Shown here one piece after another: positions 2,800-52,067 of a stretch of DNA of 64,000 bases. Numbering within the stretch: the stretch's first letter is position 1; each line of letters opens with the position of its first letter. The DNA lies in NCBI GenBank assembly GCA_040879435.1, contig JBBDKG010000013.1, forward strand, positions 18,271-82,270, in the 5' to 3' direction. The position numbers and the translations under genes are program-made. This stretch comes from Minisyncoccota bacterium (GTDB lineage Bacteria; Patescibacteriota; Minisyncoccia; Phycocordibacterales; UBA918). The notes under the pieces are model-generated. The model ran no database searches. It had not been told where the DNA came from and was given only the letters and a program-made list of their open reading frames with translations.

Positions 2800-3296
2800 A
2801 CGTGTAGTTGTTGTTGCAACCGCTTCACCGCTCGGTTGATACGTACCGATACAGTATTCGCTGACTCACCGATGATCTCGGCAATATCACGGGGTTCAAG
2901 GCCGTCAACGAATCGCATCACCAACACCTCGGCGTCCCCTTCACTGAGCTCTTGCATGTTCCGGACGATCTCTGCATAGGCTGCCTCTGCCTCCGACGAG
3001 AGCGACTGCCGGTCGGCGACCTGGAATCCGCCCTCCATCTTTGTGTCGAGGGAGTCACTCTTCTTCTTGCGATACCAGTCGATCACAAGGTTGTTCGCGA
3101 TAGTATAGAGGTACGACCGAGAATTGGTCATCTCCTTGCCGTTTCGAAGTGCCTGCCAGAATCGCATGAACGTGTCTTGTGTGAGATCCTCCGCCAGTTC
3201 AGCGCTGCTGGTCTTCACGACGCAAAATCGAAAGATCGCATCGCTGTATTCGTCGAATGCGTCGAGAAATGACTGTTTGAGAGAATCCTGATCCAT
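2796..3296 (-). CDS. RNA polymerase sigma-70 family ECF sigma factor
   Basis: Region 2 reads DLTQDTFMRFW..YLYTIANNLVIDWYRKK and region 4 reads VLVMRFVDGLEPRDIAEIIGESANTVSVRINRAVKRL; the likely true start is ATG at 3294-3296 (MDQDSLKQ), because the ORF track extends it upstream with an alternative start. Confidence 0.85.
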   Translation of the reverse strand: MDQDSLKQSFLDAFDEYSDAIFRFCVVKTSSAELAEDLTQDTFMRFWQALRNGKEMTNSRSYLYTIANNLVIDWYRKKKSDSLDTKMEGGFQVADRQSLSSEAEAAYAEIVRNMQELSEGDAEVLVMRFVDGLEPRDIAEIIGESANTVSVRINRAVKRLQQQLHV

Positions 3297-3427
3297 AAAA
3301 CGTTTCAGCCGGTGGTTTGTGACACACCACAAGCGTATCATAATGAGCAGCGGTGGTGTATCCATCCACACCCCCAGAGCCTCACCCGCTTGCGATACCA
3401 CTTCGATTGCTATACCCTCACGTGGAC

Positions 3428-3826
3428 ATGCCAGCAACAAAACCATTCAGTGTCCGCCGTACATCCGCCGGCCTCGGACTCGTCGCGAACAACGAATACA
3501 AAAAGGGTGACTTCATCATAGAATACACCGGCGAGATCATCACTGACGCAGAGGCCGACGAGCGTGCGAACCGGTATCTCTTTGAGATCAATGGCAGATG
3601 GACGATCGACGGCTCCGGTCGAACGAACCTCGCCAGATACATCAACCACTCGTGCCGTCCGAACGCCGAAGCGGAGGTGGACGAGCGTGCCAAGAAGGTA
3701 CGCATCTATGCGAAGAAACGTATCGAGGCAGGTGACGAACTCACCTACGACTACGGGAAGGTTCATTTCGACGAATATATACGACCGAATGGGTGCAAGT
3801 GTGAAAAGTGCATGGAGAAACAATGA
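3428..3826 (+). CDS. SET-domain protein lysine methyltransferase
   Basis: The SET signature NHSCRPN and the ELTYDY motif are present, followed by a Cys-rich post-SET motif (CKCEKC); the start is taken as ATG 3428 (MPATKPF). Confidence 0.8.
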   Translation: MPATKPFSVRRTSAGLGLVANNEYKKGDFIIEYTGEIITDAEADERANRYLFEINGRWTIDGSGRTNLARYINHSCRPNAEAEVDERAKKVRIYAKKRIEAGDELTYDYGKVHFDEYIRPNGCKCEKCMEKQ

Positions 3827-3943
3827 CGGCAAAACACCATTGTTTAAGGCACATTATATGATATAGTGCACACATACGAGCGGAATAAGGGACGCCCCGC
3901 AATCACGCCTCCTTTCGAACCGTTACCCGTTAAGCCCATACAT

Positions 3944-4618
3944 TTGAGAAAACCACATTCATCATTCAACGCAAAGTCACGAACGCGCATCAACAACGCA
4001 ATCCGCGCGCGTGAGCTTCGTGTGGTCGGCGCCAACGGCGAGAATCTTGGCGTACTGCTCCTCAACGACGCTCTGAAAGCAGCCGAAGAGGCTGGATGCG
4101 ACCTCATTGAGATCTCCCCGAACGCCAAACCACCGGTAGCCAAGATCATGGACTTCGGTCAGTACCGCTATCAGGAGAAGCGGAAAGCAAGCGAGGTGAA
4201 GGCAAAGTCGCACGTGACGGAAACAAAGAGCGTGCAAGTGAAGATCGGTACTGGCGAACATGACCAAATGCTCAAGGCCCGCCGTGCTGCCGAATGGCTT
4301 TCCGAAGGTCACCGCGTGAAAGTGGACCTCTTTCTCTGGGGCCGGTACAAGTATATGGAGCCAGCCTTCTTGAAGGAGCGACTGGAGCGCTTCCTGAAGC
4401 TTATCCCGATCGAATACAAGCTGGCGGATGAGATCAAGAAGAGCCCGAAGGGATACACAACGACGCTCGAGCGGGAGGGCAAGGCAAAATTCCAGCCAGC
4501 CAAAGAGAGTGCGAAACCTGCCCAAATCCTTGAAAAGGAGCCGAGAGAGTCGGAACAACCACCGGCAAAGTCGAAAAAGAAGTCCCTCGATGAGCTCATT
4601 GAAGGCGGTCTGCTATAG
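3944..4618 (+). CDS. infC: translation initiation factor IF-3 (non-ATG start; exact start uncertain, 3866-3950)
   Basis: The ORF contains INNAIRARELRVVGANGENLGVL..LIEISPNAKPPVAKIMDFGQYRYQ and a C-terminal domain (HVTETKSVQVKIGTGEHD), and carries a Lys-rich C-terminal tail; infC classically uses an unusual start codon and there is a TTG at 3944. Confidence 0.8.
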   Translation: MRKPHSSFNAKSRTRINNAIRARELRVVGANGENLGVLLLNDALKAAEEAGCDLIEISPNAKPPVAKIMDFGQYRYQEKRKASEVKAKSHVTETKSVQVKIGTGEHDQMLKARRAAEWLSEGHRVKVDLFLWGRYKYMEPAFLKERLERFLKLIPIEYKLADEIKKSPKGYTTTLEREGKAKFQPAKESAKPAQILEKEPRESEQPPAKSKKKSLDELIEGGLL

Positions 4619-8883: not shown

Positions 8884-9657
8884 CTACACCTCGGTAAGAA
8901 TGAATGCCCCGTCCTCGGTGATCGCCACCGTATGCTCAAAGTGGGCACTCCGTGAACCGTCGGCGGTAAATACGCTGTACCCGTCCCCTTCGTCATCAAA
9001 TACGACCTCACGCCCACCCACGTTCACGATCGGTTCGATCGCATACACGTGCCCCACCTCAATGAGTGGCCCCCGACCCTTCTTGCCGAAGTTCGGGATC
9101 TGCGGCTCTTCGTGCACCTTGTATCCCACCCCGTGACCACAAAGTGCGTCGACGATCGAGAGACCATGCGACTCCACATACCGTTGTATAGCATTTGAGA
9201 TATCACCGATATGATTCCCTGGCTTCGCTTCCGCGATCCCTACCATGAGCGCTTCACGCGTCACGTTGATGAGTTTCTGCGACTCCTTGTCTATCGGACC
9301 GATGCCGACAGTGATACCCGAATCAACAATAAGCCTCTTGTACCCGATGGTCATGTCGATATTGACCACATCACCCTGCTCGAGCACTTCCTTCTCGGAT
9401 GGAACACCATGTTGGACCACGTCATTCACGGAAATACACGTTGCCGCCGGGTACGGCGCCGGTGCGAAGCTCGGGTGATACCCTAAAAGGGCAGGCTCCA
9501 CACCGTACTGTTCTGCAAGCTCGGTCGCCTTGTCGTCGAGGTCCTTTGTGGACATGCCCGGCTTGGCATACGCTGCGACCTCTTCGAGAATGCGTGCAAG
9601 AATACGACCACCCTCACGAAGGGTGGCGATCTCTTCAGGTGTCTTTTTTGTGATCAT
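8884..9657 (-). CDS. map: type I methionine aminopeptidase
   Basis: The product contains VVNIDMTIGY, GHGVGYKVHEEP and FAIEPIV-type metal-ligand motifs. Confidence 0.9.
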   Translation of the reverse strand: MITKKTPEEIATLREGGRILARILEEVAAYAKPGMSTKDLDDKATELAEQYGVEPALLGYHPSFAPAPYPAATCISVNDVVQHGVPSEKEVLEQGDVVNIDMTIGYKRLIVDSGITVGIGPIDKESQKLINVTREALMVGIAEAKPGNHIGDISNAIQRYVESHGLSIVDALCGHGVGYKVHEEPQIPNFGKKGRGPLIEVGHVYAIEPIVNVGGREVVFDDEGDGYSVFTADGSRSAHFEHTVAITEDGAFILTEV

Positions 9658-10250
9658 ACAAGGTCGAGTGCTGTGAGGATCTGCTGGTGTACGCCATCGA
9701 TGGTGCCGGTGCCGTCAATATCGAATACGGTCGTACCCACGCGCGCGCGGTAGTACTCGACGACCGGCTGCGTCTCCTCACGATACCAGGTGAGCCGCTC
9801 TTCGATCGACGCCGGTGTGTCGTCAGGACGAGCCCGTTCTTCCATTCGCTTCCGCACGACTTCCTCCGGTGTATCGAGGTTGATGATCGAGACCGGCGAA
9901 CGTTCGTAGAACGAGAGTGCGGACTCGAGCACGGTCGCCTCTGCGACCGTTCGCGGGAATCCGTCAATGAGGACGTGGCATTCCGGGTCGAGGTGCTCGC
10001 GCATCGCGTCCCCCCACAACACAACTGAGAGGAAAAGTGGTTGCAGGATACCCGTATTGAGGGTCTCGCTGATATGCCGTTCGGTGTATCCCTCCCCTTT
10101 GGCTGCGAGAGCGCGGAACCTGCGACCGGTCTGGATATCGATCACGCGTCGCGCAGGATCACGCTCACGAAGCACGGCATCAAGCTTTTGGATCTGTGTA
10201 CCCTTTCCGCTCCCCTGTGGGCCGATAAATATAACAGTATGTGGACTCAT
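9654..10250 (-). CDS. adk: adenylate kinase
   Basis: A P-loop (IFIGPQGSGKGTQ) and an LID/NMP region are present; there is a 4-bp overlap with map. Confidence 0.9.
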   Translation of the reverse strand: MSPHTVIFIGPQGSGKGTQIQKLDAVLRERDPARRVIDIQTGRRFRALAAKGEGYTERHISETLNTGILQPLFLSVVLWGDAMREHLDPECHVLIDGFPRTVAEATVLESALSFYERSPVSIINLDTPEEVVRKRMEERARPDDTPASIEERLTWYREETQPVVEYYRARVGTTVFDIDGTGTIDGVHQQILTALDLV

Positions 10251-12711: not shown

Positions 12712-13368
12712 TTAGTTCTTAAGAAGCTGAAGCGCCTTTATGGTCGCGCGGGCGTTGTTCAGCTTGTTCTTGCTACGAGAAAGTAGCTTTGCGGTCACGT
12801 CCTTCACGCCGGCAAGCTCCAGTACGGTACGCGCTGAAGATCCGGCGACAAGACCTCGTCCCGGTGCTGGGATGATGAGTACCTCGCTTGAGGCATACTT
12901 TGCTGCCACGTCGTGCGGGATGTGCTGATCCTTGTTCATCAGAACTGTGATCATGCACTTCTTTGCGTCACGGATCGCTTTTTCAATGGCAAGCTGTGTG
13001 TCACCGGCCTTGCCGATGCCGACACCTACCTTGCCTTTCTTGTCTCCGAGTACCATCGCGACCGAGAAGGTGAAACGGCGTCCACCGCCCATCACACGGG
13101 TCACGCGACGGATGCTGATGATCTTCTGATCGAATTCCGGTCGTGCCCGCTCAGAACGAGCACCCCCGCGTCGCGGTCGGCGCTGGTTCCGTCGTTCACC
13201 ATCCGCTCCTTGTTGTCGTCCCCGACCGCGCCCTCGTGGCGCCCCTGCAGCTGGTGGTGTACCACCAGAAGCGGGTGCATCGGCGACAGCTGCTGCTGTC
13301 TCTTTCGACGTATCGGCGGTGTTCGCCGTGTCGGTTGTAGCTTCCTGCTTTGTTATGTCTTCTGCCAT
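12712..13368 (-). CDS. rpsE: 30S ribosomal protein S5 with a low-complexity N-terminal extension
   Basis: The product contains IISIRRVTRVMGGGRRFTFSVAMVLGD; the N-terminus is Ala/Thr/Arg-rich. Confidence 0.9.
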   Translation of the reverse strand: MAEDITKQEATTDTANTADTSKETAAAVADAPASGGTPPAAGAPRGRGRGRQQGADGERRNQRRPRRGGARSERARPEFDQKIISIRRVTRVMGGGRRFTFSVAMVLGDKKGKVGVGIGKAGDTQLAIEKAIRDAKKCMITVLMNKDQHIPHDVAAKYASSEVLIIPAPGRGLVAGSSARTVLELAGVKDVTAKLLSRSKNKLNNARATIKALQLLKN

Positions 13369-14294: not shown

Positions 14295-14690
14295 TTACCA
14301 GATCATGAAGAGCTGCTCACCTCCAACATGTGCCGTACGTGCCTCCTCGTCAGTGAGGATGCCCGCAGGTGTTGAGAGGATAAGGTTGCCCTTTCCGAAC
14401 TTTACCGGATAAATCTCTGCAGCCTTTGCATAGAGCCGACGACCAGGCTTACTCATACGCTTCACGCCGCTAATGCGATGGCTACCGCTCTCGTCATACT
14501 TGAGCGTCACCACAAGTGTCCGCTTCACGTCCTTCCCTGCTACCTCTGCATTCACCAGGTATCCTGCTTCGACCAGCTTTGTGGCCACTGCGTGCTTCAG
14601 GTTCGAGTACGGCAATGCCACCTGGTCCTTCTTGACCATGCCGGCGTTCTTAAGCTGGATGATGAAATCTCCGATCGTATCGCTTACCAT
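14295..14690 (-). CDS. rpsH: 30S ribosomal protein S8
   Basis: The product reads MVSDTIGDFIIQLKNAGMVKKDQVALPYS. Confidence 0.95.
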   Translation of the reverse strand: MVSDTIGDFIIQLKNAGMVKKDQVALPYSNLKHAVATKLVEAGYLVNAEVAGKDVKRTLVVTLKYDESGSHRISGVKRMSKPGRRLYAKAAEIYPVKFGKGNLILSTPAGILTDEEARTAHVGGEQLFMIW

Positions 14691-14869
14691 GATGATTTCT
14701 TTATTCCTGGTATATGTCCCTCGTGTGCCGCTTCACGGAAGCAGATTCGACACAGGTCGAAATCGCGCATGTATCCACGCTTACGGCCGCACTGCACGCA
14801 TCGACGAACGACACGGCTTTTGTATTTTGGTGTCCGTTCTGAACGGACGATAATGGATTTTCGTGCCAT
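14684..14869 (-). CDS. rpsZ: 30S ribosomal protein S14, type Z (zinc-binding)
   Basis: The 61 aa product has a CxxC...CxxC arrangement (CVQCGRKRGYMRDFDLCRIC). Confidence 0.9.
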   Translation of the reverse strand: MARKSIIVRSERTPKYKSRVVRRCVQCGRKRGYMRDFDLCRICFREAAHEGHIPGIKKSSW

Positions 14870-15054
14870 TTATAGGTCTTAGTGCTTGGCAGTATCACCG
14901 AGATGCGGTGACTTACCCCTATTAACGTCGCATATATCGCCCCACCCGCCTTCCGATCGAGAACTTTCGATTCGGCGCGTCAGATTTCCTTCAAATTGAG
15001 GAGTGTCTGCGATATATCGCTACGCGGAGTAGAATACAGCAAAATTATAAAAAA

Positions 15055-15090
15055 ACAAGGTCCGGCGAATCGATCGCCAGACCTTTTGAA
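15055..15090 (-). terminator. intrinsic terminator downstream of hypothetical gene 15107-15502
   Basis: aaggtccggcgaatcgatcgccagacctttt; the minus strand carries a T-tract. Confidence 0.6.
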
Positions 15091-15106
15091 ACGCGCCCCC
15101 CACCGC

Positions 15107-15502
15107 TTACGCTTTGCGCTGTCTCGTTCCGCCGAGCAATTCGTCGGTGAGCGCCTTCCACCCCGCTTCAGCTGCGCCGGGGACACGGTCGCCGATGTCG
15201 CGTGCTGCAGCAAAGAGTTCGTCGGTGAACTGCTTGAAGCCGGCGGAAGCATTCTTGCCCGTATGCTGGGCCTTCTCGCCAATGCCGAATGACGCAAGTG
15301 CGATCACTGCGGCAAGTTCGATTCTGACGGTTGCGGTGATGACTCCACCCGTATTGGGCTGTGCTTCGAGCACCAACCAGTCACGGACGAGCCCGTCGCC
15401 GTCCGGCTTGTGCTCGAACCGTGCGTTCGTGATAGAGAACGGAACGTCCCCCACCTGCGAACGAAAAGCCTCAAAAGCACCATTCTTGGGTTGTGTAGCC
15501 AA
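15107..15502 (-). CDS. hypothetical protein (131 aa, mixed beta/alpha, no recognisable domain)
   Basis: Clean ORF with its own terminators on both sides; the product begins MATQPKNGAFEAFRSQVGDVPF. Confidence 0.4.
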   Translation of the reverse strand: MATQPKNGAFEAFRSQVGDVPFSITNARFEHKPDGDGLVRDWLVLEAQPNTGGVITATVRIELAAVIALASFGIGEKAQHTGKNASAGFKQFTDELFAAARDIGDRVPGAAEAGWKALTDELLGGTRQRKA

Positions 15503-15551
15503 TGATCTATCCTTTCCTTCAAGAGTGTGCAGCGTACACTACGCTAGAGCA

Positions 15552-15588
15552 GAAAAAAATCAACCCCGGCAGTGACCCGCCGGGGTTG
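15552..15588 (-). terminator. intrinsic terminator downstream of the TAXI SBP gene
   Basis: The minus strand reads aaccccggcgggtcactgccggggttgattttttt. Confidence 0.8.
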
Positions 15589-15607
15589 TTCGCTAGAAGA
15601 GCAGAGC

Positions 15608-16633
15608 TCAGTCGGATGCGGGGTTGACCGCGCTCGTCGACTTGACCGACTTCGGCGTGAACACGTTCTCCCACTTCATTTCGCGGGAGGGATTGATGCG
15701 ACGCCACGCCGGATGCATTCCGGGCTCTTCCTGAAACCGGAGGATGTTCTCCCGGACGCAGGACTGGAGCTCGGAGAGTGCATTCACGAATTCGGGAGTC
15801 TTGTACTCCCACACGAAGAGGAGCGCGTCGACCGTCAGGGTCTCCGTGCCCTGGCCCGTGCTGCCGAGATTGTCGTAGCTGACCGTGGAGAGCCCGTAGA
15901 CGGACTCAACGTCCTCGGTGAGCTGCTTCCCGACCTCAAGGAGCTTGAACTCGCCTTTCGGCAGCTCTTCGATCCAGGAGGCCGGGTAGCCGACAGTGGC
16001 GATGATCGCATCGGCCTGGCCGTCGCGAATCATCTGGATCGCCTCGCCCTCGTTGCCGGCCGAGATGACGTTGAGGTTGAGACGGCCGAGCTGACCCACG
16101 ATCTTCGCCGTGGTGAGCGAGCCGCCCCAGGCGACCACCGTACGACCTTCAAGGCCGGCCACGTCGCGCAGCGGATTCTGCTGAACTTCGTAGACGGCTT
16201 CCTTGCTGCCGATCCCGGTGCCGAAGAAGCCTTCTTCGGCTTCCACGGTCATGACCGACACCATAGCGGGGACGATCACGTGGATCGCCTCCTCATGGAG
16301 CGGGAGCAGTGCCTGCACCCGCGGCATGTCGGGATTGACCTGGAGTTCGAGATACGCCTTGTCGAGCTGAGCCAGACCGCCGGGGATCTCGTTGCGGAGA
16401 ATACCCCGGATGTTGTTGTCTGATCCGCCGATCGACTTGCCGTCCTCGCCCAGGCGATGCTGAACGACGAGGGTGTCGCTGTTGCACACATCGGCGATCT
16501 GCTGGACAACGGGGTAGTACGTACCACCCTCGCCGCCGGAGCCGATCGTAAGCGTTGTCGGTGCCGCCGCGGCGAATGCCGTGCTGCCGCCGGCCACAAC
16601 TGCTGCGAGCATGAGCTGGTTCAAGTATTTCAT
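15608..16633 (-). CDS. TAXI-family TRAP-transporter solute-binding protein (orphan; no DctQM permease nearby)
   Basis: A signal peptide (MKYLNQLMLAAVVAGGSTAFAAAAP) is followed by TLTIGSGGEGGTYYP, which is characteristic of TAXI; an AGAAGGAG Shine-Dalgarno sequence precedes the ATG at 16631-16633. Confidence 0.75.
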   Translation of the reverse strand: MKYLNQLMLAAVVAGGSTAFAAAAPTTLTIGSGGEGGTYYPVVQQIADVCNSDTLVVQHRLGEDGKSIGGSDNNIRGILRNEIPGGLAQLDKAYLELQVNPDMPRVQALLPLHEEAIHVIVPAMVSVMTVEAEEGFFGTGIGSKEAVYEVQQNPLRDVAGLEGRTVVAWGGSLTTAKIVGQLGRLNLNVISAGNEGEAIQMIRDGQADAIIATVGYPASWIEELPKGEFKLLEVGKQLTEDVESVYGLSTVSYDNLGSTGQGTETLTVDALLFVWEYKTPEFVNALSELQSCVRENILRFQEEPGMHPAWRRINPSREMKWENVFTPKSVKSTSAVNPASD

Positions 16634-16667
16634 CGTGGTTCTCCTTCTTACGATGACTTCCGGTCCG

Positions 16668-16877
16668 TTACCGGAGCTTGAGTTTATTGATGGCATCCTC
16701 TTCACGCGAATCGGATACCGCCGGTCGTGCCGGGGCCGGCCGTGCGGCAGGCCCTGGCGGTTTCTTTTCTGCACGGACGGATGTTGTCGAACTCGACGAG
16801 AATCCGTCCGTGTATACATAACCGCCGCCAATGATGAGAATCATGACGATTACGGCTATGATGATGCGCCCTATCAT
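16668..16877 (-). CDS. small single-TM protein with a Pro/Ala-rich tail
   Basis: MIGRIIIAVIVMILIIGGGYVYT...; it lies between the 2-TM protein and the TAXI gene on the same strand. Confidence 0.35.
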   Translation of the reverse strand: MIGRIIIAVIVMILIIGGGYVYTDGFSSSSTTSVRAEKKPPGPAARPAPARPAVSDSREEDAINKLKLR

Positions 16878-16889
16878 GGTGCCTCCTTC

Positions 16890-17672
16890 CTAGGCCAGGA
16901 CTCTTTGCTTGTTGTCGAAGAAGTGAGGGGTCTGGAACGGCTCGTTGTCGTCCGTACCCGGATCCTTCTCATACGTGAGTCTGAGCACCTCCTGGGTGTC
17001 AGCATCCTTCTCGAGCAACATCTCGAGCTCGGCGAATGAGTCCGCGACGCTCTGTCGGACTGCGCCGATCGCCTCGCCCTTGAGGATCTCGTCGAGCGCA
17101 GCGTCGCCGCTGACGTTCTTGAGTTGACGCATGGCGCCGGAAGCTCGCTGAGCCCACTTGTGGTCCGCCTTCATGAAGCGGACTTTGCTGTGGTACTCCT
17201 GGAGCTGCTCCTCAGCGTCGCCAGCCTTGGTGCGAAGCACTGACACAGCGTTCTTCATCCGGTCCATCATTTCCTGACGGTCTGAAACGTCCTCATTCGG
17301 GAATTCCCTCTTGAGATCGTTCAGCTCATCCTGAGAGACCTTGTGTGCAGCCATCATTTGCTGCACATAGCTGACGAACTTATCGAGCGAGTTGCGCTTT
17401 TGCTGATAATCAAGCTCGAGCGTCTCGATCGGATTCATGCGAGCGTTCGCTTTCGCCAACTTGAGTGCCAGTGTCTTCATGATCCGAATGATCGAACCTG
17501 AGAAGAGGATGGCACCGGCGACGATCGCAGCGTAAACGCCGATCACCACCAGATTCGCCATCGCGAACGCTGCCATGCCGAGTACTGGACCCAGAATGGC
17601 GAGTACGAGAATGCAAACGAAGCCAAATACAGCCTTCTGCATTCCCGTCATTTCGGAGAATTTCGGCAACAT
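16890..17672 (-). CDS. 2-TM hairpin membrane protein with a cytoplasmic coiled-coil domain (possibly TelA/XpaC-like)
   Basis: ATG at 17670-17672 with an AGGAAGG Shine-Dalgarno sequence; two adjacent TM helices are followed by about 180 aa of helical, charged sequence. Confidence 0.45.
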   Translation of the reverse strand: MLPKFSEMTGMQKAVFGFVCILVLAILGPVLGMAAFAMANLVVIGVYAAIVAGAILFSGSIIRIMKTLALKLAKANARMNPIETLELDYQQKRNSLDKFVSYVQQMMAAHKVSQDELNDLKREFPNEDVSDRQEMMDRMKNAVSVLRTKAGDAEEQLQEYHSKVRFMKADHKWAQRASGAMRQLKNVSGDAALDEILKGEAIGAVRQSVADSFAELEMLLEKDADTQEVLRLTYEKDPGTDDNEPFQTPHFFDNKQRVLA

Positions 17673-17753
17673 CGAGGGATCCTTCCTTTGCTCGTTAATT
17701 GTCGAGATACTGCACAAAAATACCTGTGGACTTCACCACAGATTCCGGACGAG

Positions 17754-17782
17754 AGAGTATCACACATAGTATTGAATGTCAA
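17754..17782 (-). promoter_or_regulatory. consensus sigma70-type promoter (TTGACA-N17-extended -10 TGTGATACT) driving the TAXI island operon
   Basis: Read on the minus strand, the sequence is TTGACAttcaatactatgtgtgaTACTCT. Confidence 0.5.
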
Positions 17783-17818
17783 TATTTTCTGGAAAGGTTC
17801 CCCTCGGGGCAGTTCTAA

Positions 17819-17849
17819 GAAAAGACCGCACTTTCGTGCGGTCTTTTCT
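17819..17849. terminator. bidirectional intrinsic terminator downstream of rplE
   Basis: The sequence is gaaaagaccgcactttcgtgcggtcttttc. Confidence 0.8.
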
Positions 17850-17863
17850 ATATGTTGTTTGTC

Positions 17864-18412
17864 TTACGCAGCTACCTCCTCCTTCATGAGCGGCAGACCG
17901 ATATTTCGCAGGAATGCCTCTGCTTCCTCTTTGGACTTCGCGGTCGTCACGATAGTGATCGCGAACGAGAAGACGTCGCGGATATCCTCGTCAACGGTCT
18001 CCGGGAAGATAGTGTGCTCCTTGATACCGATGGTGATGTTCCCCATCTCATCAATGGCAGTCGGCTTGAGACCACGGAAGTCACGGGTCTGTGGGAGGGC
18101 GATATGCACCAGCTTGTCGAAAAAGTCGCGCATACGGGCGCCACGAAGGGTCACCTGGTATCCAACGACATCACCTTCACGAAGCTTGAACGATGCAATC
18201 GACTGACGCGCAGGTCGCGGTGCCGGCTTCTGGCCGGTGATGAGTGCGAGGCGATCCTGAATGAGGGCGATCTTTGCCTTGTCATCTACCTTGCCGGTAC
18301 CGACCGAGACCACGATCTTCTCCATTTTCGGCGCCTGCATCCGGTTGGTGTATGCAAAGGTGTCCTTCAAGGCATCGTAGACATGTTCGAGTTTTGCTTT
18401 GATTGGTTCCAT
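17864..18412 (-). CDS. rplE: 50S ribosomal protein L5
   Basis: MEPIKAKLEHVYDALKDTFAYTNRMQAPKMEKIVVSVGTG; the ORF track starts at an upstream TTG, and ATG 18410-18412 is preferred. Confidence 0.9.
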   Translation of the reverse strand: MEPIKAKLEHVYDALKDTFAYTNRMQAPKMEKIVVSVGTGKVDDKAKIALIQDRLALITGQKPAPRPARQSIASFKLREGDVVGYQVTLRGARMRDFFDKLVHIALPQTRDFRGLKPTAIDEMGNITIGIKEHTIFPETVDEDIRDVFSFAITIVTTAKSKEEAEAFLRNIGLPLMKEEVAA

Positions 18413-18437
18413 ACGCAAGTAGTTCTGGTGCTAATAA

Positions 18438-22580: not shown

Positions 22581-23552
22581 CTATACCCGCGATTTCCTCT
22601 CTGCCGCCAACCACTCAACCACCTGCCCTATAACCGGCAGGTCACGTATGAACTCATGCACATTCCGATACGGACGGTGAAACGGAGTGTGGAAGAAGAG
22701 GACAATGAGTAGCAAGATACTTTGCGAGAAGGTAATACCCATCGTGAGCATGGTCCCGAAGTGGAACACAATGAGCAGAAATGCCCAGCTGCGCTGCAGC
22801 GACGGACGGATCATCACCCAGAACGCCGCTACCTGAATGAAGTAGAAGCCGGCGTAGAAGGGCCACCACCACTCCGGATGCATGATAACTGAAGGAGCGA
22901 GGATCGCCTCGCTCTGGAGCCGCAGGACCATATCGGCACTTTGGTACGCAAATGCCTGTACGTGCAATCCGTGGATCTCACCTGCCAGATACTGCGTCAC
23001 GACCGCGATCCACTTATGCATCCCGGCGAGTGTGTACGTGAGCATCACGAGCGCCTGCGCGAACCAGACATACAAAAGGAACGACCGTGCACGCGCAAAC
23101 GCCAGTCCGGCCTGATGCCACCCCGCAGGAAGGAAAACGAATACGAAGGAAGTATAGAGCCACCCGTACCACTGGTGATTGATGTGCCCAAACGAGCTTT
23201 CGAACGCATGCACCTGCCAGATCGCCAGAAACACGAGCATGCGGACAAGAAGGAAACGATGAAACAACAGGCCCAGCAACGAGGCGACGATGAACAGGAG
23301 CTTGACCACAGTCACCACCGTCGTGAACTCGAGTGATCCACTCCACCAGAGCGGCCAGAATGGGTCATAGCTTGTCCGGCCGGAGAACGATGCCTGGAGA
23401 AAGGTGAACGCAAGCAGCGGGATTACGTAGTAGTAGTATGAGACCAGCGTGCGCGCACGTGTAAGTGCCTGCGCATCACGCGCCCAAGCCGAGATAGAGA
23501 CCGGCCGAATATACGTGTGCCAAAGGTGTCTTGTTGTGCGTGCGATTTGCAT
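22581..23552 (-). CDS. polytopic membrane protein, Trp/His/Phe-rich (possibly HTTM/VKGC-like)
   Basis: ATG 23550-23552 lies 1 nt after the stop of the upstream gene; about 8 TM helices; the ORF-track N-terminus overlaps 23554-24027 in another frame and is rejected. Confidence 0.45.
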   Translation of the reverse strand: MQIARTTRHLWHTYIRPVSISAWARDAQALTRARTLVSYYYYVIPLLAFTFLQASFSGRTSYDPFWPLWWSGSLEFTTVVTVVKLLFIVASLLGLLFHRFLLVRMLVFLAIWQVHAFESSFGHINHQWYGWLYTSFVFVFLPAGWHQAGLAFARARSFLLYVWFAQALVMLTYTLAGMHKWIAVVTQYLAGEIHGLHVQAFAYQSADMVLRLQSEAILAPSVIMHPEWWWPFYAGFYFIQVAAFWVMIRPSLQRSWAFLLIVFHFGTMLTMGITFSQSILLLIVLFFHTPFHRPYRNVHEFIRDLPVIGQVVEWLAAERKSRV

Positions 23553-23553
23553 A

Positions 23554-24027
23554 TTATTCCAATTGACCCTTTCGCTCGAATGTCCCGAGGAGCACCTCTT
23601 CTTTGTACGTACCCGTTTTCCAGTACTCGACCGGGTCGATCCGCACACGACGCACGTCGTATCGAAACGGTTTATTTCCGAACAGATGCGAGACCCGTTG
23701 CTGATACATATCAATTCGCTCATCAGCACCCTTCTCGACCGCCATACCGAGCTCTTGCACGTCGGGTATGTATTCAGTTGGCGATGAGTCCGCCGCTTCA
23801 GCGATGAATCTGAGTTCCGAGAACGCAAGTGGTGGATCATACACGCTGTCTCCCCACTGATGTACAGCGATGGTGTACTCGGTCCGTTCGTTCGGGATAT
23901 AGGAGAACAACTGCCACGCGAAGAGTGGGTATGATTCGTGTATCACAAAACCCTGAAGCGGCACCGCAAAGACTGCGTACCCGATAAGCAGCGTGATCAT
24001 ACCAACCTTCACCGTTCGATACTGCAT
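23554..24027 (-). CDS. membrane-anchored hypothetical protein (N-terminal TM plus extracytoplasmic domain)
   Basis: The product begins MQYRTVKVGMITLLIGYAVFAVPLQGFV; the gene is translationally coupled to 22581-23552. Confidence 0.4.
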   Translation of the reverse strand: MQYRTVKVGMITLLIGYAVFAVPLQGFVIHESYPLFAWQLFSYIPNERTEYTIAVHQWGDSVYDPPLAFSELRFIAEAADSSPTEYIPDVQELGMAVEKGADERIDMYQQRVSHLFGNKPFRYDVRRVRIDPVEYWKTGTYKEEVLLGTFERKGQLE

Positions 24028-40351: not shown

Positions 40352-41839
40352 TCAAACATCTGACAAGTCCGCCCGTATACTTTGACGCCGCGATACATAC
40401 CATATTCCCACACCCATGACCACATATGCACCGACCATAAGGGAAAAAGGAAAGGCCGGTACGACAAAGGCAGCGAACGGGAGTGTTGCGAACCATCCAG
40501 CAACTTCGAGTATATAGAGGAGCGATAGATACGCGAGGAACGCGAACGGCATCGCTGCAACAGAAGACAGCGCAGCAACGACGCCGGTGCAGAATGTGAG
40601 GAGCATCGCGAGTGGCACCATCGGAAGTACCAATACGTTCACAACGACCGACACCACCGAGAACTCACCGATCTGATACAGCAAGAGTGGCCAGACGATC
40701 AGCTGGGTCGCGAGCGTGGCAACAAGGAACTCCCGCACACCGATCGTGCGAGGGACGAGGGCGAGCCGCGCCTCCAACTGCGGCGCGACCATAATGAGAC
40801 CGAGCGTTGCAAGGAACGAGAGTTGAAAGCCCGGATCAAACACAAGAAGGTACGGATTCACAAACAACATGGCAGCACCGGCGATGCAGAGCGCGCGCAA
40901 CACATCATACGTTTCGCCGAATCCTTGAGCTACCAGCAGAAGTCCTGCCATGATACTCGCCCGCAGTACGGTCGGACTGAGTCCTACCAGAAGCGCAAAG
41001 AGTGCTACCGCGATGATACCGACCACCATTCGTGCCCGTAGTCCGAAGAGGAAGGAGAGGCAGAACAGCACGAAGGCCACCACGAGCATGACGTTGTATC
41101 CGGACAGCACCACGATGTGGATGATACCGGTGCGACGGAACACCAGCTCCAACTCTTCGCCGAGCGCCCGTTTCTCACCAAGCAGAAGTCCTTCGCCAAG
41201 ACCGACCATCGGTTCGGGAATAAGGGACTCGATGTTGTCCATGAACGAGTGCTTCCATACGAGGAGTCCATGCATGAGCCAATTGCCGTCCCACCCATTC
41301 AGTCGCTCCACCTGCGGGTAGATCATCATGTATGAAACGCCGCGCGCTTGAAGATACCCTGGGTAATTGAACGTACGGCCGAGGTCGGTCTCGAACGATT
41401 CGGGTTTCGCAAGTTCTCCGGTCACGGCGACCTGTTCCCCGTACGCGTGATCACCGAAGGCATCAGTGATGACGAGAATACGGCCAACGTCCGTTTCAAT
41501 ATATAAATGTGTGGTCGCGCTGCGCACATCCGGTTCGCGGACGATCGTACCCTCAACGCTCACCTCACTCCCCACTCGGGACTCAAAGGCAGGAATTATC
41601 TCATTCCAATCAGCGATCTCCATACGGAGCACGCCGAAGGACATAAAGAGGATTGCGAGCGCTGCATACAGTACGGCAGGATCCGAGACTGCACCACGAT
41701 TCCGCTGCCACAGACACGCCAGAACAAACGCAAGCATCACGGCGGCGGCAATTGCCGGCAGACCGACCGCAAAGAACGAGCGGATGAAGATACCGAGTGT
41801 GAATGCGATGACACCGACATACACAAACGAGGCATGCAT
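40352..41839 (-). CDS. comEC: ComEC/Rec2 DNA-uptake channel, membrane portion (DUF4131 OB-fold plus Competence domain)
   Basis: The 495 aa product is polytopic, with an N-terminal OB-like region (VSVEGTIVREP) followed by the competence-domain TM bundle. Confidence 0.75.
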   Translation of the reverse strand: MHASFVYVGVIAFTLGIFIRSFFAVGLPAIAAAVMLAFVLACLWQRNRGAVSDPAVLYAALAILFMSFGVLRMEIADWNEIIPAFESRVGSEVSVEGTIVREPDVRSATTHLYIETDVGRILVITDAFGDHAYGEQVAVTGELAKPESFETDLGRTFNYPGYLQARGVSYMMIYPQVERLNGWDGNWLMHGLLVWKHSFMDNIESLIPEPMVGLGEGLLLGEKRALGEELELVFRRTGIIHIVVLSGYNVMLVVAFVLFCLSFLFGLRARMVVGIIAVALFALLVGLSPTVLRASIMAGLLLVAQGFGETYDVLRALCIAGAAMLFVNPYLLVFDPGFQLSFLATLGLIMVAPQLEARLALVPRTIGVREFLVATLATQLIVWPLLLYQIGEFSVVSVVVNVLVLPMVPLAMLLTFCTGVVAALSSVAAMPFAFLAYLSLLYILEVAGWFATLPFAAFVVPAFPFSLMVGAYVVMGVGIWYVSRRQSIRADLSDV

Positions 41840-50840: not shown

Positions 50841-52067
50841 TTATATGCTATCGGAGATCGAGTAGATCGGTGCGATCATCGCGAGTGCGAAGAACCCGAC
50901 CGTACCGCCGATCACCACCATCAGGACCGGTTCGATGATAGTGGAGAGGTCTTTGGTCTTCTGCTCGACCTCCTGTTCGTAAAAGTCGGCAAGTTGCGTG
51001 AGCATGCGCGAGATAAGGCCAGTCTCCTCCCCCACAAGGATCATCTCACCAACGAACACCGGATAGAGGTCCACACGCGCAATGAAGGCCTCTGAGAGTG
51101 GTGACCCTTTTTCGACCTTTTTCGCCGCTTCGCGAATGACTGGTTTGTAGTAGACGTTCTGAATCACCTCCTCGGTAATGTTGAGTGCGCGAATGACATC
51201 AACACCAGAAGTGAGGAGTGACGAGAGCGTGCGCGCGGTGCGGGCCGCATTCGTCTCCCTCACCATCGTACCGATCACCGGAAGTTTCAAAATGACGTAG
51301 TGAAAGATGCGCTTCCCGATGCGCGTACGGAGCGAGTAGATGAACCCTGCGACCGCACTGATCATACCGAGGATCACCAAGAGCGTGTGTGCGACCATGA
51401 AATCGGATGTTGCAATGAGCACCTCGGTCATAACCGGTAGGTCGACCTCCAGTTTCTTGAACGTCCCGGTGATGGACGGCATCACGTAGATCATCATAAG
51501 GATACCGATAATGACCATGATGATAAGGACGATCGACGGATAGATCATCGCCCCGCGGATCTTCTTTTTGAGCGTGGACGTCCGCTCCATCTGCACGCCG
51601 AGTACCTGCAGCGCCTCGGCCATACTGCCCCCCTCCTCTCCCGCGTGTACCATCGCGACATACAGATCATCGAACACCTCAGGGTGTGCTTCAAGTGACT
51701 GGTAGAAAGAATCACCTTTTTGGATCCGCGCCTCAAGGTCGCGCACCACTCTCTTCAATTTCGGGTTGCTGCTCTGCCGCTCGATCACCGTGAGCGCCCG
51801 CGAGAGCGGGAGCCCTGCTGTGATCATGGAGCTGAGGTTGCGGGTGAACATCACCAGGTCGTCATTTGAGACACGGCTGATGAATGCATTGATACGCTCC
51901 ATATTCATCAGCTTCTTCAGCGAGAACTTCCGCTCAGCGGCGACCGAAGTGACCGTATGTCCTTCTGTACGTGCCCGGTCGTAGACCGCAAAGCGGTCCT
52001 TCGCCTCGACGGTATTGGTGACCGCCTCCCCGCTCGCGTCTGTTCCTTTATAGGTAAATTTTGGCAT
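50841..52067 (-). CDS. pilC: type IV pilus assembly platform protein PilC (GspF family)
   Basis: Two GspF repeats, three TM helices and a conserved N-terminal region (MPKFTYKGTDASGE). Confidence 0.9.
   Translation of the reverse strand: MPKFTYKGTDASGEAVTNTVEAKDRFAVYDRARTEGHTVTSVAAERKFSLKKLMNMERINAFISRVSNDDLVMFTRNLSSMITAGLPLSRALTVIERQSSNPKLKRVVRDLEARIQKGDSFYQSLEAHPEVFDDLYVAMVHAGEEGGSMAEALQVLGVQMERTSTLKKKIRGAMIYPSIVLIIMVIIGILMMIYVMPSITGTFKKLEVDLPVMTEVLIATSDFMVAHTLLVILGMISAVAGFIYSLRTRIGKRIFHYVILKLPVIGTMVRETNAARTARTLSSLLTSGVDVIRALNITEEVIQNVYYKPVIREAAKKVEKGSPLSEAFIARVDLYPVFVGEMILVGEETGLISRMLTQLADFYEQEVEQKTKDLSTIIEPVLMVVIGGTVGFFALAMIAPIYSISDSI

Follow-up and report, generated by a model that had tools for sequence, protein, structure and literature searches.

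A TAXI-type binding protein and two small membrane proteins: a gene triad of Patescibacteria and large phages with a possible role in uptake

Solute-binding proteins of the TAXI type are known in transport only from tripartite ATP-independent periplasmic (TRAP) systems, such as VcGluP-VcGluQM and TtGluBP, and recently also from systems with GltS. The present study deals with a gene of this type in a stretch of 64,000 nucleotides (the window) of contig JBBDKG010000013.1 from a Minisyncoccota bacterium, where it stands inside the ribosomal-protein cluster together with genes for two small membrane proteins. The three genes are named A, B and C in the order of their transcription, C being the TAXI-type gene; a further gene, D, follows them. 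In VcGluP, glutamate is held by the residues Y45, S75, Q93, H123 and E125 (PMC11574862). C shares with the TAXI-TRAP systems the predicted fold, the Tyr/Ser/Gln/His/Glu contact residues and the export, whereas it differs from them by a score below the TIGR02122 cut-off, an insertion after residue ~120, a conserved cysteine pair and by its obligate partners, which are a bundle protein with two transmembrane helices and a single-pass protein instead of an adjacent DctQM permease. A TAXI protein that works with a non-TRAP membrane partner is already known, because in Bordetella pertussis the TAXI protein BP0403 has left the TRAP permease and is genetically coupled, in some cases fused, to GltS (PMC12344293). 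However, GltS is a polytopic Na+/glutamate symporter with a suggested elevator-type mechanism (PMC12344293), while the partners found here have a total of three transmembrane helices and a fold not recognisable as that of a transporter. A TAXI clade with such obligate partners would be a second escape from the TRAP paradigm, and the module may reveal a new way of moving or sensing a metabolite.

Other described systems resemble parts of the triad. The PspA/Vipp1/LiaH proteins share with A a long helical hairpin that has shorter helices after it and a basic amphipathic helix with an N-cap motif before it, and small single-pass or hairpin membrane partners (PspB/PspC, LiaI) are present there as well. 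However, A has no significant sequence or profile similarity to these proteins and is an integral membrane protein, and the Psp and Lia systems have no periplasmic binding protein. The Holin-X family (PF07332, holin superfamily III) has the same N-in/C-in hairpin of two helices rich in small residues, followed by a basic amphipathic helix, whereas A carries an extra cytoplasmic domain of ~190 amino acids, its matches to the family stay below the gathering score and the module is not located in lysis cassettes. At the conceptual level, GluR0 is comparable too, in that a periplasmic-binding-protein fold controls a pore of few helices per subunit; the first TAXI structure, 1us4, was in fact deposited as 'putative GluR0 ligand binding core'. 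There, the binding domain is fused to a P-loop channel, whereas here the proteins are separate, A has no P-loop and a channel role is only conceptual. Finally, phages carry auxiliary solute-binding proteins such as the cyanophage PstS, the genes of which come alone and rely on host permeases. Like them, the present clade includes phage-borne, exported proteins encoded among metabolic genes, but it always brings its own two membrane proteins.

Distribution of the A-B-C triad

The ribosomal cluster on the minus strand of the window comprises S3, L16, L29, S17, L14, L24, L5, the island, S14, S8, L6, L18, S5, L15 and SecY. Four genes interrupt it between L5 and S14:

17864-18418, minus strand: rplE (L5), upstream flank of the island (open reading frame (ORF) list; Pfam Ribosomal_L5 and L5_C on the identical public contig)
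16890-17672, minus strand: gene A, 260 amino acids, transmembrane hairpin with the N-terminus inside plus cytoplasmic helical domain (ORF list, Pfam, AlphaFold2 (AF2) model)
16668-16877, minus strand: gene B, 69 amino acids, single-pass membrane protein (ORF list, comparison among modules)
15608-16633, minus strand: gene C, 341 amino acids, secreted solute-binding protein of predicted TAXI fold (Pfam, NCBIfam, profile search of the PDB, AF2, Foldseek)
15107-15502, minus strand: gene D, 131 amino acids, TTG start, ORFan outside the module (ORF list; family searches without a match)
14684-14869, minus strand: rpsZ (S14), downstream flank (ORF list; the homologous position in locus L006 is Pfam Ribosomal_S14)

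The sequence-only reading, made before any database search, had placed all four genes at exactly these positions inside the ribosomal cluster, with rplE and rpsZ as flanks, and C does contain the sequence TLTIGSGGEGGTYYP that was quoted from it. The public copy of the contig has the same calls and Pfam labels for these genes, and NCBI lists the encoded proteins under Candidatus Paceibacterota. The same reading had regarded C as an orphan TAXI protein and had proposed to check whether the genes travel together. The first view had to be given up, since C is one part of a widespread phage-linked module, while the check gave a clear answer. Every homologue of C or A with enough flanking sequence showed the identical A-B-C order; the obligate co-occurrence of the three genes is thus shown computationally. 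The triad was found in seven of seven independent Patescibacteria contexts examined, three at the L5/S14 site and four with non-ribosomal flanks. It follows L5 in L004 and precedes S14 in L006, and L002, L003, L005 and L009 have unrelated flanks. Since the site is shared although the three genomes that have the module at L5/S14 encode ribosomal proteins only 60-89% identical to those of the window, the insertion there is evidently old and seems to have been retained by the cell.

Outside the Patescibacteria, the module is carried by cultured large phages with genomes of 143-344 kb, the hosts of which are Ralstonia, Achromobacter and Vibrio:

Achromobacter phage Motura: module at 72369-74202
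Ralstonia phages RP12 and RP31: ORF195-194-193
Ralstonia phage phiRSL1: ORF096, then ORF100-101
Ralstonia phage RsoM2USA: genes 54-53-52, with an A too divergent for the hidden Markov model (HMM) used but with the motif NIDPIAVL
Vibrio phages RYC, Va1 and K354: carry the module

Among the viral loci of IMG/VR, all 30 that were seeded on C, which include some near-duplicates, had A upstream on the same strand and B immediately before C, and the TAXI gene came right after A and B in 10 of the 12 loci seeded on A. A and C belong to PHROG families that occur mostly on contigs of large, jumbo and mega-phages. No other conserved neighbours of the module were found, except in one phage lineage in which the whole neighbourhood is shared. 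That the observed arrangement should be more than chance follows from the synteny, because it is conserved in dozens of unrelated contigs.

The non-canonical membrane partners that had been suspected for the TAXI protein proved to be a constant feature, as A and B recur with C and no DctQM-like polytopic ORF stood beside any of the 28 modules scanned. Within the window, DctQM was not found either; its polytopic ORFs are SecY, ComEC, an M50 peptidase, the F protein of a type II secretion system (T2SS) and one ORF of 419 amino acids (22581-23840) with ~4 transmembrane helices and no Pfam match. The adjacent DctQ/DctM genes of a complete TAXI-TRAP system are therefore missing from the window and from all 28 modules. 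In the literature searched on TAXI proteins with such partners and on phage genes, no published description of the triad was found; as far as this literature shows, the module has not been described before.

Gene D had no Pfam, NCBIfam or PHROG match, forms a singleton cluster and has no phage match. It was considered as a fourth component and rejected, because it has no homologues and the genes at the same position in other modules are unrelated to it.

Three of the module-bearing contigs come from metagenome-assembled genomes that are labelled Patiriisocius sp. (L017/L006), Micavibrio sp. (L021/L002) and Bifidobacteriaceae (L020). In the case of L006, the module proteins are 46-47% and the ribosomal proteins 61-85% identical to those of the window. 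With these values, the Patiriisocius label looks like mis-binning.

The three proteins and their alternative heads

At the level of fold and pocket, C is predicted to be a TAXI protein, though a divergent one. It scores 37.8 bits against the Pfam model PF16868 NMT1_3 and thereby passes the gathering score of 27, whereas the 64.4 bits against the NCBIfam model TIGR02122 TRAP_TAXI are below the cut-off of 84.35. The TAXI assignment made from the sequence alone was thus borne out by NMT1_3 and by the fold, but not by TIGR02122. With a profile of the C clade, the solved TAXI proteins 1us4, 8u79, 8s4j, 9ibo and 4ddd were found in the PDB at E-values of 1e-15 to 4e-11. The AF2 model of C (predicted local distance difference test (pLDDT) 87.2) shows the two-lobe cluster-F binding-protein fold and is nearest to solved TAXI structures, since the best seven Foldseek matches in the PDB are all TAXI proteins (E 3e-16 to 3e-14, TM-score 0.55-0.68), followed by a next tier at 1e-8. 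The best structural neighbours include 4ddd, 9ibo, 1us4, 8u79, 8s4j and 9ibp. In the alignment with VcGluP (8s4j), Y39/S71/Q89/H113/E115 of C correspond to Y45/S75/Q93/H123/E125 and are invariant within the clade; when phage homologues are added, the columns of Y45 and E125 are still invariant and the glutamine equivalent to Q93 is conserved to at least 90%. The cysteine pair C50/C292 is also invariant in the clade and conserved to at least 90% once the phage copies are included. The N-terminus, MKYLNQLMLAAVVAGGSTAFAAAAP, reads as a signal peptide: its n-region is basic, its core is hydrophobic, and it has an AxA site but lacks the cysteine of a lipobox. Because the TAXI fold, the ligand residues and a signal peptide are all kept, we conclude that C should be an exported, functional binder of a small molecule, which is probably amino-acid-like or carboxylate-like. 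C furthermore matches the phage protein family phrog_6856, of unknown function, with E = 1.1e-16 (1.4e-46 for C of Motura). The sites in the three genes to which the following comparisons refer are:

16511-16543, minus strand: codons of the ligand-binding loop GSGGEGGTYYP of C, including Y39, which corresponds to the key Y45 of VcGluP (alignment to 8s4j and 1us4; invariant columns)
17487-17633, minus strand: transmembrane hairpin of A, residues ~14-62, rich in small residues (alignments, AF2 secondary structure)
17418-17435, minus strand: codons of NPIETL (residues 80-85 of A), at the helix break that separates the juxtamembrane helix from the first long cytoplasmic one (alignment; position read from the sequence)
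16671-16697, minus strand: C-terminal motif DAINKLKLR of B (comparison of B proteins)

Protein A had been seen in the sequence as a two-helix hairpin protein with a long helical cytoplasmic part, and the AF2 model (pLDDT 79.6 overall, >90 for residues 90-170) agrees with this view. Helices 10-31 and 40-79 form the transmembrane hairpin, and the long helices 81-123, 130-185 and 201-234 build a cytoplasmic domain of about 190 amino acids. A single-sequence word-index search gave 13 relatives and a profile search 106, while the exhaustive phmmer search resulted in 249 cluster representatives at 50% identity, nearly all of 230-300 amino acids. In the alignment of 98 members, NPIETL just after the second transmembrane helix comprises the sole invariant columns; P29 of the hairpin is nearly invariant there and invariant in an alignment of 16 sequences. 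The A of the window matches phrog_27316, a family of unknown function, over residues 16-230 (E = 2.3e-8), as do 96 of the 98 members (best 5.8e-50), and neither Pfam nor NCBIfam has a model for the family. Between the window and the Patescibacteria copies L002, L003 and L004, A is 23-28% identical compared to 44-62% for C; the cause is either a much faster evolution of A or recombination between bases and heads.

Only distant resemblances were found for A. The Pfam model Holin-X is matched weakly by 20 of the 98 members, all below the gathering score (best E = 5.9e-4; in one example 15 bits vs. the cut-off of 28.4), and the match of A from L018 spans the hairpin region; the A of the window itself is without a Holin-X match in the Pfam search. 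In Foldseek, the top PDB matches of the A model are Vipp1, PspA and CHMP2A-CHMP3, over ~200 columns with a probability of at most 0.97 and E ~0.13. The Pfam model PF04012 PspA_IM30 gave E = 0.63 for A of the window and 0.087 for one phage member (gathering score 33.9 bits). Homology to PspA at the sequence level was rejected, since hhalign of the 98-sequence profile gave probabilities of 1.8% for PspA and 0.8% for YjfJ of E. coli. The likeness to ESCRT-III/PspA could at best be taken as a weak lead at the level of the fold. Collectively, A resembles an ESCRT-III/BAR-like bundle on a holin-like hairpin and is a member of none of these families. The earlier suggestion that A might be a TelA or XpaC protein was not supported, as PF05816 and PF10112 are absent from its Pfam matches at E <=1 and from the 25 families listed for the 98 members; a PHROG annotated as 'tellurite resistance' is matched weakly by only two of the 98. 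Matches to the phage small terminase, Rad50/SMC, the PADLOC models JetC, PbeC and LmuB, and syntaxin were all far below cut-offs and were discarded as coiled-coil noise.

The 69-residue single-pass protein proposed from the sequence was recovered as B, with a plan shared across modules: a short basic N-terminus, one transmembrane helix, a low-complexity or proline-rich linker and a C-terminal motif. In most TAXI-type modules, the extreme end follows the pattern hydrophobic-K-x-hydrophobic-K-hydrophobic-x, with phage B proteins ending in DLKNLKIQ, MKSLKIE, LKSLSIN and similar sequences; in Motura, RP12 and the Vibrio phages, the pattern is weaker or the ending differs. The motif is missing from the B proteins of modules that contain a beta-rich head in place of C. 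This head is a secreted, conserved protein of ~350 amino acids and is encoded by the third gene in L011, L012, L014, L018, L020 and L044 (Verrucomicrobia-type, some phage). It has no Pfam or PDB-sequence relative, and its interpretation as a divergent TAXI protein was rejected (hhalign probability 1.4%). In three loci, the beta-rich head is followed by a protein of ~180-200 amino acids, which we read as possibly outer-membrane-barrel-like. L031 holds both the beta-rich head and a TAXI gene. Yet another head occurs on the viral contig L023, where A is directly followed by one protein (3161-4255) with an N-terminal membrane anchor of its own, an SBP_bac_3 domain and a C-terminal, peptidoglycan-binding LysM domain. 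There is no B gene in this locus, i.e. the anchored protein replaces B plus TAXI.

Gene fusions point in the same direction. A is fused to B in P0199, and in P0167 and P0172 A is joined via a hydrophobic segment to the beta-rich head. In the topologies of these fusions, the C-terminal domain of A lies in the cytoplasm and the heads lie outside, consistent with the positive-inside distribution. On the basis of the distribution of the B motif, these fusions and the single-protein replacement in L023, we propose that B may act as membrane tether for the soluble head C, and we read A as the probable constant base on which the head is exchangeable.

Uptake and competing explanations

Our data support the notion that A, B and C represent a single, self-contained envelope module that large and giant phages share with some bacteria, in which C acts together with A and B rather than with a TRAP DctQM permease, and that this module may serve uptake; we hold this interpretation with somewhat better than even confidence. 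We infer that A and B associate in the membrane and that ligand-bound C acts on this base. In such a module, C would be exported and bind a small ligand with the classical TAXI pocket, and the extracytoplasmic tail of B, ending in the conserved motif, would hold it at the membrane surface. A would be the membrane base, its two-helix hairpin being continuous with the cytoplasmic bundle, and would probably assemble with B and with itself. Docking of ligand-loaded C on the A/B base could then open or feed an oligomeric pore of small helices, so that the metabolite might enter by facilitated diffusion and be trapped by cytoplasmic enzymes.

Uptake is favoured as somewhat likelier than sensing or membrane protection, because transport is the sole known function of TAXI proteins, another TAXI protein has switched its partner, scavenging genes occur in the neighbourhood of the phage modules, and Patescibacteria depend on scavenging. 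The weak Holin-X likeness of the A hairpin in 20 of the 98 members can be taken as a further hint towards uptake. With regard to the neighbours, the phiRSL1 module (L035) stands beside genes for NMNAT/Nudix and an NAPRTase-family enzyme of nicotinamide adenine dinucleotide (NAD) salvage, and the RYC module (L036) beside those for phosphoribosyl pyrophosphate synthase and an NAPRTase-family enzyme. A NadR-like protein (86-1141) is encoded two genes upstream of the module in L023, and an ADP-ribosylglycohydrolase (9034-9825) near it in L027. It might be possible that C supplies a pyridine precursor. In Motura (L016, 5001-9724), the module is followed by genes for homospermidine synthase, a DUF1190 protein and glutathionylspermidine synthase, and directly after the RP12 module (L038, 6912-8434) an SBP_bac_11 binding protein and a BPD_transp_1 permease of an ATP-binding cassette (ABC) system are encoded, with no ATPase seen nearby. 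Because the themes vary and are not conserved, these neighbours should be regarded as hints only.

Several points weigh against uptake by such a module. With three transmembrane helices, an A/B pair is unlike any known transporter fold, and an energy-coupling element is not visible. The ligand of C is predicted only as a class; the contacts of B with C and of A with C are ones that we infer; and the Holin-X likeness of the A hairpin is far below threshold. The metabolic genes next to the module vary among the phages and lack conservation, and a DctQM permease may be encoded in the genome outside the window and the module flanks that the search covered. Moreover, the A family pairs also with the beta-rich head, which does not have a binding-protein fold, a pairing more readily expected of a generic sensor or scaffold than of a solute channel.

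A broader version of the idea takes the exchange of heads as its starting point. Accordingly worded, the module would be a membrane machine with exchangeable heads, in which a TAXI protein, a family-3 solute-binding protein with LysM or the beta-rich protein sits via a short tether on a hairpin/ESCRT-III/BAR-like base and works either as ligand-gated scavenging pore or by coupling head occupancy to membrane remodelling; it would have been spread by giant phages and adopted by Patescibacteria. We regard this version as a serious but tentative possibility, which is less probable than the self-contained uptake module as such, and consider the chance substantial that the membrane base embodies a new mechanism.

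Among the rival explanations, a device for ligand sensing or membrane protection survives best, although we consider it rather unlikely. According to this view, A would be a PspA/Vipp1 (ESCRT-III)- or BAR-like scaffold that keeps the membrane stable, reshapes it or captures a partner in the cytoplasm, B would be comparable to PspB/PspC or LiaI, and envelope or nutrient status would be signalled by C or by one of the other heads; in phages, the device would protect the host membrane during long infections. The modular exchange of TAXI, SBP_bac_3-LysM and beta-rich heads fits a sensor well, and the top structural matches of A, namely Vipp1, PspA and CHMP2A-CHMP3 (probability <=0.97), point to such a scaffold. 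However, the Foldseek E of ~0.13 is not significant, long helical bundles match many folds non-specifically, the profile comparison with E. coli PspA and YjfJ stayed below 2% probability, and the PspA_IM30 E-values of 0.63 and 0.087 are far below the gathering score. The motif after the second transmembrane helix of A, [ND]-P-x-x-x-L-E, is one that we take to resemble the alpha0/alpha1 junction of PspA/Vipp1. In this regard, the Motura neighbourhood can also be counted, because the DUF1190 and glutathionylspermidine synthase genes that adjoin the module there have counterparts in the yjfI-yjfC operon of E. coli K-12 (L042), which encodes YjfJ (PspA family) together with YjfM (DUF1190) and YjfC, a ligase similar to glutathionylspermidine synthase. 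This gene pair is a possible functional parallel that would link the module to a PspA-like protein. Against this view, neither an output domain nor a conserved cytoplasmic partner gene was found.

We consider it improbable that C is an ordinary TAXI protein serving DctQM or another polytopic transporter encoded elsewhere, in the phage host or in the Patescibacteria genome, with A and B retaining C or being unrelated to it. Such an arrangement would be in line with the lone phage binding-protein genes of the PstS kind mentioned above, and the search for DctQM was limited to the window and the module flanks. In the other cases known, TAXI proteins are subunits of transporters, and there are orphan genes for TRAP binding proteins (PMC12344293). 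However, 100% of the loci with this TAXI clade, including the 30 seeded on C, also have A and B, in hosts as unlike as Patescibacteria, Ralstonia and Vibrio. A host-independent set of partners fits this pattern better than reliance on unrelated host permeases, and the A-B and A-head fusions speak for one complex.

Equally doubtful is a phage device for conflict or lysis control, i.e. superinfection exclusion or regulation of a holin by a periplasmic sensor, of which the Patescibacteria copies would be domesticated or remnant forms: the concentration of the A and C families on contigs of large, jumbo and mega-phages, the weakly Holin-X-like hairpin, the LysM domain of the L023 head, which occurs also in endolysins, the much faster divergence of A than of C (23-28% vs. 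44-62% identity) and the G+C content of C above its flanks would all suit it, but the same chromosomal site in Paceibacteria with ribosomal proteins of only 60-89% identity indicates that the cell has kept the module for a long time, other phage genes are absent from its flanks in the window, the phage copies are found among early or metabolic genes and not in lysis cassettes, and the strict conservation of the pocket would be needless for exclusion.

The self-contained module, preferably one for uptake, is of interest for several fields. In phage research, it offers a handle on recurrent viral dark matter (phrog_27316, phrog_6856) in many jumbo and mega-phages, where it may relate to the supply of NAD or polyamine precursors or to the integrity of the host membrane in long infections. 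Patescibacteria have few recognisable transporters, and the fixed site in the ribosomal cluster makes the module a candidate device for uptake or host sensing in these cells. The phage systems with culturable hosts make the question directly testable.

Transcription signals and genomic surroundings of the island

The intergenic gaps within the module are short (12 nt between A and B, 34 nt between B and C), and strong Shine-Dalgarno sequences precede A, B and C (AAGGAAGGA, GGAAGGAGG and AGAAGGAG), as had been noted before for all three genes. Its G+C content sets C apart (0.62-0.64 vs. 0.51-0.57 in the flanks), and the ORF list has no other phage genes beside the module in the window. The following signals were found, in the direction of transcription:

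17818-17849, minus strand: palindromic terminator-like hairpin directly 3' of rplE (14-pair stem that the scan lists for the plus strand; read on the minus strand, TTTTCTT comes after it)
17754-17782, minus strand: promoter-like element, TTGACA, 14 nt, TGa, TACTCT (read from the sequence)
17722-17743, minus strand: hairpin plus T-run in the leader 5' of A (terminator-like scan match)
15561-15588, minus strand: hairpin like an intrinsic terminator, closing the A-B-C unit (12-pair stem, 9 G-C pairs, then ATTTTTTTCT)
15057-15085, minus strand: terminator-like hairpin after D (terminator scan)

The consensus promoter that the sequence-only reading had placed in front of A stood in part. The perfect TTGACA is present at 17782-17777, and an extended -10 element (TGn), TGaTACTCT, begins 14 nt later; however, the hexamer TACTCT agrees with the -10 consensus at only three of six positions, so that the scan for consensus promoters made no call at 17754-17782. 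A promoter of A with a non-consensus -10 element is therefore best described as plausible. The terminator that was expected to close the A-B-C unit was detected as the hairpin at 15588-15561, and likewise the separate one of D at 15085-15057. Overall, the scan gave seven terminator-like sites in the region compared to 3.2 expected. Because such hairpins stand after rplE, after C and after D, the island is predicted to be transcriptionally insulated from the ribosomal genes. The leader hairpin at 17722-17743, with the putative promoter on one side and the Shine-Dalgarno sequence of A on the other, is followed by ATTTTTGTG and could be an attenuator. A riboswitch or known leader RNA 5' of A was also considered and rejected, as Rfam gave only sub-threshold terminator look-alikes and the leader fold was unexceptional, with a z-score of -1.04.

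The palindrome after rplE (17818-17849) and the terminators of the island split the spc-type ribosomal operon. With the operon divided in this way, rpsZ and the genes downstream of it must presumably be transcribed from a promoter in the spacer of ~190 nt after D (14870-15056), or by read-through. Further downstream in the cluster, the ORF of S5 (12712-13368) has a low-complexity N-terminal extension of ~80 amino acids, which is Ala/Thr-rich and then Arg/Gly-rich; in the public contig, the gene caller made two genes of 59 and 126 amino acids from this region. Apart from the cluster, the window codes for ComEC (40352-41839, Competence and DUF4131 domains) and for a T2SSF platform protein of type II secretion or type IV pili (50841-52067), and such machinery for DNA uptake and pili is typical of Patescibacteria.

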